Position numbers and translations under genes: made by a program. A stretch of 64,000 bases of DNA from the IMG/VR virus record IMGVR_UViG_3300047560_002175, positions 64,001 to 128,000 of that record. One strand, written 5' to 3'. The DNA comes from a virus. Its lineage: Duplodnaviria > Heunggongvirae > Uroviricota > Caudoviricetes. This document shows, one piece after another, positions 2,464-2,766 of the stretch; positions within the stretch are counted from its first letter, which is position 1, and every line of letters starts with the position of its first letter. Under the pieces are notes generated by a model. That model made no database searches, was not told where the DNA came from, and saw only the letters and a list, made by a program, of their open reading frames with translations.

Positions 2464-2766
2464 TTTAGTGGTGTGCTATTACGCTAAAGACCTGTCTTCG
2501 ACATCCTAATTAACTCTCGGACATGTTAAGTTTAACTATTAGGAAAAACATCCTTAACATGTAGGGTATACCTCCCTCATCCGTTTAATATAGCAATCAC
2601 TTTAGACTCGTAACAGCCATTAAGGCATATTGCCGGACTCTATATTAACGCAGTTACATACGCTTACAGGTTGCTTTCGCACTGCCGTAAGTTTAAGTAT
2701 CACTTTAGCAAAGTTTGCGGGTCACTCTTTAAATGATGGCTGCTTCTAAGCCAACATCCCAATAAA
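2464..2766 (-). ncRNA. 23S rRNA GTPase-associated-centre (H43-H44) mimic RNA with 239-nt insertion
   Basis: GGATGTTGGCTTAGAAGCAGCCATCATTTAAAGA matches E. coli 23S 1055-1088 as I recall it; GCGTAATAGC (1091-1100) resumes at 2484; compensatory pairs. Confidence 0.8.

Follow-up and report, generated by a model that had tools for sequence, protein, structure and literature searches.

A gene for a non-coding RNA that rebuilds the 23S rRNA GTPase-associated centre in a phage tRNA island

The stretch of DNA considered here, called the window, comprises the 64,000 nucleotides at positions 64,001 to 128,000 of the IMG/VR virus record IMGVR_UViG_3300047560_002175, assigned to the Caudoviricetes. Its minus strand carries, within a tRNA island, the gene for a non-coding RNA of about 310 nt, the 5' and 3' ends of which rebuild the GTPase-associated centre (GAC) of 23S ribosomal RNA (rRNA). 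This element is almost certainly a folded replica of the GAC and a member of a family of phage RNAs.

Over 34 nt, the minus strand at 2759-2726 is identical to positions 1055-1088 of the E. coli 23S rRNA. The next two nucleotides (GU, minus-strand 2725-2724) stand for E. coli 1089-1090 and are followed by an insert of 239 nt, after which the minus strand at 2484-2469 reads GCGUAAUAGCACACCA and equals 1091-1106, save for an A at 1101 and for the positions belonging to the closing helix. Letter-for-letter identity with E. coli covers 1055-1088, 1091-1100 and 1102-1104. The parts of 23S rRNA copied in this way are the end of helix 42 (H42), H43, the hairpin at 1082-1086 and H44, and the window holds all the nucleotides of the tertiary fold and of the contact with the ribosomal protein uL11, namely U1060-A1088, A1077, A1084/A1085, G1071, C1072 and the 1082-1086 pair. 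A previous reading of the window, made from the sequence alone, had already placed a match to H43/H44 here, and both the letters and the alignment to the Rfam model of bacterial large-subunit (LSU) rRNA agree with it. This model (RF02541) aligns with 2759-2717 over model positions 1096-1145, with 24.8 bits and E = 1.1e-5, and the alignment breaks exactly between the consensus 'GAGU' and 'GCGUAAUAGC'. As this score lies below the gathering score of 50 bits, the element does not qualify as a genuine 23S gene or as a fragment of one.

The Rfam search detected no further rRNA-like sequence anywhere in the 64-kb window, including the flanks of the element, in keeping with what the sequence-only reading had stated. 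No open reading frame (ORF) of at least 40 amino acids overlaps the element on either strand. The element is present as a single copy in the complete phage genome of 372,173 bp from IMG/VR, which displays direct terminal repeats and for which a comparison with cultured phages revealed no close cultured relative. The RNA is organized as follows, and its closing helix counts nine pairs in the window (2767-2759 with 2471-2463), eight of them paired and one being a U-C mismatch.

2457-2773, minus strand: whole RNA element
2462-2768, minus strand: structured core, equivalent to E. coli 1046-1113
2759-2767, minus strand: 5' strand of the closing helix, GUUUAUUGG, equivalent to the end of H42 (1047-1055); its partner is 2463-2471
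2733-2757, minus strand: equivalent of H43 (1057-1081) including the 1067 loop, identical to E. coli; A1067 is at 2747 and U1060 at 2754
2728-2732, minus strand: mini-hairpin UUAAA (1082-1086) of the three-way junction, in which the U1082-A1086 pair covaries
2724-2727, minus strand: 5' strand of H44 before the insert (G1087, A1088, G1089, U1090); U1090 pairs with A1101 (2474), a signature of the family
2485-2723, minus strand: inserted accessory domain of 239 nt with several internal helices; GACC (2723-2720) pairs with GGUC (2492-2489), and the linker is UUUA (2488-2485)
2504-2562, minus strand: pseudoknot (H-type) within the 3' portion of the inserted domain; 2562-2553 pairs with 2530-2521 in stem a, and 2544-2538 with 2510-2504 in stem b
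2491-2502, minus strand: conserved single-stranded tail of the insert subclass; consensus GUAGAAGACAGG, window GUCGAAGACAGG
2463-2484, minus strand: 3' part of H44 with the 1095 loop (G1091-C1102; A1095 is at 2480), then the 3' strand of the closing helix (1104-1112)

The family and its fold

By BLAST against cultured phages, the 5' half of the element was located in unannotated gaps of 300-400 nt in five of them: Cronobacter phage GAP32, Pectobacterium phage CBB, Xanthomonas phages XaC1 and XacN1, and Aeromonas phage 4_4572. All five have a common layout, with pairing flanks, H43, the 1082-1086 hairpin, 'GAGU', an insert (170-222 nt), 'UUUG' and the 1095 loop with A1101. Scanning IMG/VR with the phage-specific 3' half yielded at least 119 loci, and the H43 half lay upstream in 107 of the 125 loci gathered at that stage. 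Further members were obtained from a second scan of IMG/VR in which the linker was left unconstrained. Of the 33 loci detected in a scan of the GTDB genomes, the family model scores 25 at 71-114 bits; these belong to widely differing lineages, cultured isolates among them. Drawn from IMG/VR phages, cultured phages and prophage or metagenome-assembled genome (MAG) contigs, the family totals at least 175 distinct elements in at least 205 loci, a lower bound obtained with scans anchored on A1101 and on the 3' half of the element.

All members combine a covarying closing helix, the GAC core and an extra helix with a linker between 1090 and 1091. A covariance model called R1 was built from 24 short-insert members, the window being left out of the seed, and it finds the element at 2773-2457 over the full model (1-166) with 91.8 bits and E = 1.3e-31. 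Besides this match, the element of the window shares with the family a closing helix of its own, the 1090/1091 helix with its linker and U1090-A1101, and a site in a tRNA array on the strand of the tRNAs. The earlier description of the element as a phage-encoded, stand-alone replica of H43/H44 is upheld, with a closing helix of its own.

In one MAG contig from GTDB (L145, 3989-5393), R1 matches three times within a single array of nine tRNAs (96.8, 44.6 and 20.5 bits), which suggests tandem or degenerate extra copies. The sequence from Paenibacillus phage Pd_22F (L005, MZ092003.1, ~83.9 kb) was left out of the family as ordinary contiguous 23S, being host DNA or an assembly artefact, and many short records of the collection labelled as phage are likewise plain host rRNA.

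Structural selection acts on the fold of this RNA. In the MAFFT alignment A3, 93.7% of the cells are paired, compared with 32-55% when the partners are slid, and the covariation score reaches 0.595, compared with at most 0.16 for slid partners; none of 500 shuffles equals it. Over 84 unique cores, pairing in the closing helix amounts to 88.5% in register and falls to 25-42% when the partners are slid; in A3, both-sided changes are found at eight of the nine pairs of this helix. In the 84 cores, the pairs 1054-1105 (GC 60, AU 22, UA 2), 1058-1080 (UA 40, GC 23, AU 13, CG 4; 100% paired) and 1082-1086 (UA 49, CG 24, AU 9) are 98-100% paired with three to six pair types each. The differences from E. 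coli that had been called compensatory in the window, i.e., G1054-C1105, U1053-A1106 and U1090-A1101, are real there and hold across the family, and the covariation supports the earlier argument for selection on the fold rather than a scrap of rRNA. Covariation was relied upon for the structure because folding of single sequences and energy-only folding were weak or conflicting: the stability of the single-sequence fold of the whole element is not significant (z = -1.28), and the energy-only consensus of near-identical relatives conflicts with the structure of the family.

The nucleotides G1055, G1059, U1060, A1077, C1079, A1084 and A1085, which we take to be those of the tertiary core in L11-RNA crystal structures, are invariant in 84/84 cores though the searches left them unconstrained. 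The loop positions that contact factors and drugs are looser, with A1067 in 154/175 elements, A1095 in 164/175 and A1096 in 153/175, while 1097 is either U or C. This relaxation of 1067, 1095 and 1096 fits selection for the fold and for protein binding better than selection for the contact with EF-G.

Compared with the GAC inside 23S rRNA, the element has the same helices, the same junction hairpin and the conserved tertiary and U1060-A1088 nucleotides. Unlike it, the element is free-standing and phage-encoded, and, in place of H42, a covarying 9-bp helix of its own closes it. It also differs by the helix between 1090 and 1091 with a UUU(G/A) linker, which here carries a domain of 239 nt, by a Watson-Crick U1090-A1101 pair that is fixed in the family, and by positions 1067, 1095 and 1096, which are somewhat relaxed.

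That the element has no function of its own, being decayed host 23S rDNA, a pair of exons flanking a group I intron, an attP-like copy of rRNA or a cis-regulator of the adjacent ORF, is extremely improbable and is already contradicted. Such a reading can draw on the 100% identity of the 5' half with enterobacterial 23S over 34 nt, on the place of the insert after a U and on the host rDNA that contaminates some phage records, as in L005. It is opposed by the compensatory changes that 175 distinct elements display in each of their helices, by a closing helix whose sequence is unrelated to H42, by inserts that may be as small as 27 nt and are never absent, by the end of the window insert in A rather than G together with the lack of any Rfam intron match, by neighbouring genes that are not constant, and by the nature of the genome, a complete phage with direct terminal repeats. 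A scrap of rRNA or contaminating host rDNA was ruled out by covariation and distribution.

The domain inserted between 1090 and 1091

Rather than an interruption, the extra helix between 1090 and 1091 is a trait that defines the family. Counted together with its linker, the insert measures 27-627 nt across the family (median 137 nt), and the smallest inserts are plain hairpins. In 84/84 unique members, the insert closes on a helix of its own (2-9 bp), the three outermost pairs of which all covary, as had been read in the window from the GACC/GGUC helix. The linker UUU(G/A) occurs in 86 of 92 elements, with no constraint on it in the search, and the UUUA of the window is its minority form (8/92).

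The insert is no intron, and the idea of 'split' halves that could be spliced together is not supported: a helix of 27-627 nt occupies the site in every member, and Rfam returns no intron. As with group I introns in 23S genes, an insert of a few hundred nucleotides breaks a conserved 23S sequence after a U. Unlike these introns, the insert varies from 27 to 627 nt, has a constant closing helix and linker, ends in A, and is flanked by something other than an rRNA gene. The group I intron model (RF00028) gives no match at E <=10 in the window and none at E <=1 in five homologues, and these introns were rejected on that ground as well as on the terminal A and on homologous inserts down to 27 nt. 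An intron of any sort was rejected on the continuum of sizes down to 27 nt and on the constant closing helix. Rfam displays no intron, ribozyme or riboswitch at the insert site of the window and of five homologues, and no credible match of any kind in the window insert, where the only hits reach 10-17 bits (E 1.6-9.2) for gathering scores of 40-80. A BLAST of the window insert against complete 23S yielded only 11-mers at chance level.

The insert of the window belongs to a subclass that is common to L033, L034, L113, L128, L048, L049 and L129. The H-type pseudoknot in its 3' part is proven by covariation: in alignment A5 (7 sequences from 4 lineages), 95.9% of the cells are paired, compared with 32-45% when slid, 16 of the 17 pairs have substitutions in both partners, and no shuffle out of 500 attains the observed value. 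The tail, in columns 61-72 of A5, is near-invariant and is visible in alignment A2 too. Further helices in the 5' part of the insert have partial support.

A different subclass of long inserts (~300 nt), found in L118, L050, L059 and L085, includes a hairpin resembling the sarcin-ricin loop (SRL), with a loop of the AGUACGAGAGGA type and covarying stems, whereas 0.8 such cases are expected by chance. As the GAC and the SRL jointly constitute the binding site for translation factors (PMC8661411), the SRL-bearing members imitate both halves of this site. The RNA might accordingly be imagined as a docking platform independent of the ribosome that, together with stalk proteins, would sequester or futilely activate EF-G, EF-Tu, IF2, BipA or RelA-type proteins, a role that we consider decidedly unlikely. 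It is suggested by these SRL-like hairpins and by the retention of A1067 and A1095 in ~88-94% of members. It is not suggested by the window insert, which contains no SRL (the best match has 4/14 mismatches and is not kept in L048 or L049), nor by most other members, the inserts of which are short and devoid of SRL, and the factor-contact positions are the least conserved of the core.

A second expansion site, besides that at 1090/1091, is the 1077/1078 bulge of H43, where L016, L049, L065, L100, L101, L105 and L129 bear an additional hairpin or domain.

Genomic setting

The window includes 11 tRNA genes and one transfer-messenger RNA (tmRNA) gene, all on the strand of the element. The element lies within this island, as the sequence-only reading had indicated, with tRNA genes on both sides: those upstream are Asn, Met, Glu, Gln, Tyr and Met, and those downstream Thr, two Ser, Pro and Gly. 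Besides the tRNAs, the adjoining sequence includes an ORF of 218 aa that stops 3 nt short of the element and is preceded by a sigma-70 promoter of perfect consensus. Against the core of the class II aminoacyl-tRNA synthetases (PF00587), the product of this ORF scores 27.2 bits, below the cut-off of 29.3 bits. No terminator-like site was found in 2000-3600, and none is predicted before the tRNA-Thr gene.

3458-3485, minus strand: promoter TTGACA-16 nt-TATAAT (12/12 matches), upstream of the ORF
2771-3427, minus strand: ORF of 218 aa (3427-2771)
2274-2348, minus strand: tRNA-Thr, the next gene downstream of the element

Association with tRNA genes is a trait of the family. tRNAs lie no more than 4 kb from 70 of 108 loci and no more than 500 nt from 57 of them, all on the strand of the element, and the spacing is often 9-20 nt. 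In L144, two tRNA-Ser genes in an array of 24 tRNAs flank the element, which stands exactly between them. The neighbourhood is otherwise inconstant, as no protein family recurs at more than 6 of the 108 loci, and the recurrent neighbours are typical island genes coding for a GIY-YIG endonuclease, a CCA-adding enzyme, TerD and a Ro60-like protein of the DUF2828/DUF7788 type. An RNA gene in a phage tRNA cluster recalls rnaC and rnaD of T4 (species 1 and 2 RNAs), which are stable RNAs of unknown function. Kinship with them was rejected, since R1 with filters off reaches at most 9.5 bits over the tRNA region of T4.

The tRNA island also encodes, downstream, a peptidyl-tRNA hydrolase of the PTH2 type (E = 7e-35) and a DUF6321 protein (970-1371 and 1375-1746, minus strand). 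The tmRNA gene (15366-15808, minus strand) is recognized by the permuted two-piece model with 116.6 bits and by the betaproteobacterial model with 113.5 bits, and ARAGORN gives it an unusual tag peptide. On the same strand are found a homologue of DnaK (28713-30641), whose gene is ~73% identical in nucleotides to bacterial dnaK, an ORF weakly similar to RNA ligases (34736-35830) and a giant ORF of 3437 aa (44220-54533).

A gene for a Ro60-like protein (DUF7788, E = 2e-50; G000:255965-256495) lies ~2 kb before the start of the window, 4.2 kb from the element, and close relatives of the window also have one nearby. The RNA could thus be thought to form a Y-RNA-like module with the phage Ro60-like protein, the GAC replica taking the place of the tRNA-like module and directing an RNA-surveillance complex. 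Like Y RNAs and YrlA, the partners of Ro60/Rsr with tRNA-like modules, which include the Yrl RNAs of phages, the element is a modular non-coding RNA that imitates an RNA of translation and resides in phage RNA islands. Unlike them, it has neither a Y-RNA match in Rfam nor the conserved Ro-binding stem, its closing stem being unconserved in sequence beyond 1053-1055, and most carrier genomes lack a Ro60-like gene. Such genes (DUF7788/TROVE) are present in only 17 of 52 element-bearing records, with 13 of the DUF7788 type and 4 canonical TROVE (raw counts without a background rate), and in 10 of 25 complete genomes, and those of GAP32 and CBB are located ~180 kb from the element. A partnership with Ro60 is very unlikely on these grounds.

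Phage tRNA islands are generally read as counter-measures to defences that target translation, and the setting of the element would fit a decoy substrate for toxins or defence effectors attacking the GAC and, in some members, the SRL. Such a decoy would absorb ADP-ribosyltransferases, nucleases, glycosidases or thiopeptide-like molecules before they could disable the ribosomes of the infected cell. The SRL hairpin present in four members is a classic toxin target, and RNA-repair genes adjoin the element in XacN1 and in a Flintibacter prophage. In XacN1 (L006), the element comes directly after an RNA ligase gene, to which the ORF at 3427-2771 of the window is unrelated. In the cultured Flintibacter muris DSM 110149 (L155, 1109-1306), it belongs to a prophage with a tail-fibre gene and DNA methyltransferases, and it is flanked by the tail-fibre gene and by a gene for a fusion of polynucleotide kinase, phosphatase and RNA ligase (730 aa). 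Nevertheless, RNA-repair neighbours occur at only 3-4 of ~110 loci, and no part of the core varies more than the 1095-1097 loop, an odd property for the decoy of a loop-specific enzyme. It also counts against a decoy that, to our knowledge, no anti-phage defence system is directed at the GAC. We regard this role as unlikely on the whole, even if a toxin for exactly this site does exist, Tre23, which ADP-ribosylates nucleotides 1095-1098 in H44 of 23S rRNA and impairs the GTPase activity of EF-G (PMC8661411).

Possible action in the infected host

No gene for uL11, uL10, bL12, an EF-Tu-type GTPase or a RelA/SpoT domain was found in the phage genome by searches in which the positive controls all worked. 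Any protein ligand is therefore expected to come from the host, and a role in trans is favoured because no neighbouring protein family recurs at more than 6 of 108 loci and the genes just named are absent.

Capture of uL11 or of stalk proteins is the mechanism that we tentatively favour, at a level somewhat short of probable. According to it, the element would be transcribed together with the adjoining ORF and the tRNAs and then freed by tRNA-processing enzymes as a stable RNA, acting in trans as a free-standing imitation of the ribosomal GAC site. Its likeliest direct activity would be the binding of host uL11, possibly along with uL10-bL12. By acting as a sponge, the RNA may keep the stalk-base proteins from new ribosomes. 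Ribosomes poor in uL11 still translate, yet they cannot activate RelA. The variable insert would add lineage-specific functions, as may the SRL copy of four other members.

This capture is ranked first because the strictest conservation falls on the fold and on the contact with uL11, and because uL11 binds the rRNA domain in isolation. A 58-nt fragment of 23S rRNA (E. coli 1051-1108, i.e., the end of H42, H43 and H44) binds both uL11 and thiostrepton. Most of the contacts by which uL11 reads the minor groove of the 1067 stem are with the backbone, and specific hydrogen bonds to U1060-A1088 complete them (PMC2175356).

Four points weigh against uL11 as the main ligand or limit the case for it. 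The constancy of 1087-1090, 1091-1094 and 1098-1104, and largely that of 1062-1076, was imposed or filtered by the search patterns and is not independent evidence. Moreover, uL11 that is already bound to ribosomes need not exchange, which could restrict a sponge to newly made protein. The 1090/1091 helix and the invariant A1101, both absent from real rRNA, could alter the surface met by uL10 or uL11. Finally, the SRL copies in four members point towards GTPases, or towards enzymes directed at the SRL or the GAC, as ligands in preference to uL11 alone.

An extra-ribosomal RNA that imitates the rRNA site of a stalk-region protein is already represented by the mRNA leaders of ribosomal proteins, e.g., the L10 leader (RF00557). 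These are cis-acting 5' leaders of cellular ribosomal-protein operons and only partial mimics. Unlike them, the element is a separate RNA gene located in phage tRNA arrays and a near letter-for-letter copy of a whole tertiary domain; it has no ribosomal-protein gene in its vicinity, none for a stalk ribosomal protein was found in the genome, and no Rfam leader matches.

A broader proposal goes beyond the capture of uL11 or stalk proteins. Large phages may carry a hitherto unrecognised class of RNA genes that would each be a free-standing working model of the ribosomal factor-binding site, with the GAC in all of them and the SRL in some. In association with host stalk proteins, such RNAs would draw translational GTPases, RelA-type enzymes or toxins directed at the GAC or SRL off the ribosome, and the variable inserts, including the pseudoknotted domain of 239 nt in the window, would tune the ligand. 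We find this generalization possible if rather doubtful. If true, phages would have in such RNAs an instrument for taking over the host or countering its defences.

Rfam 15 does not include the family, and full-text literature searches, with subscription-only papers outside their reach, returned no description of a GAC-replica RNA, in line with the earlier remark that none was known. RNAs of viruses and cells are well known to mimic tRNA, whereas an independent gene copying a functional centre of rRNA appears to be undescribed, as far as found. Phage-encoded bL12 and other ribosomal proteins have been reported (PMC6375957), and a phage-encoded gene for an rRNA domain is, as far as found, not among the known translation genes of phages.

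The cultured carriers, i.e., GAP32 with Cronobacter, CBB with Pectobacterium, XacN1 and XaC1 with Xanthomonas, and 4_4572 with Aeromonas, allow direct tests. If binding proves true, the family would offer hundreds of natural variants of a much-studied RNA tertiary fold, with tolerated insertion sites at 1090/1091 and 1077/1078. For the phages themselves, an RNA that binds uL11, stalk proteins, GTPases or GAC-directed toxins would represent a new route to manipulate translation, the stringent response or the defences of the host.

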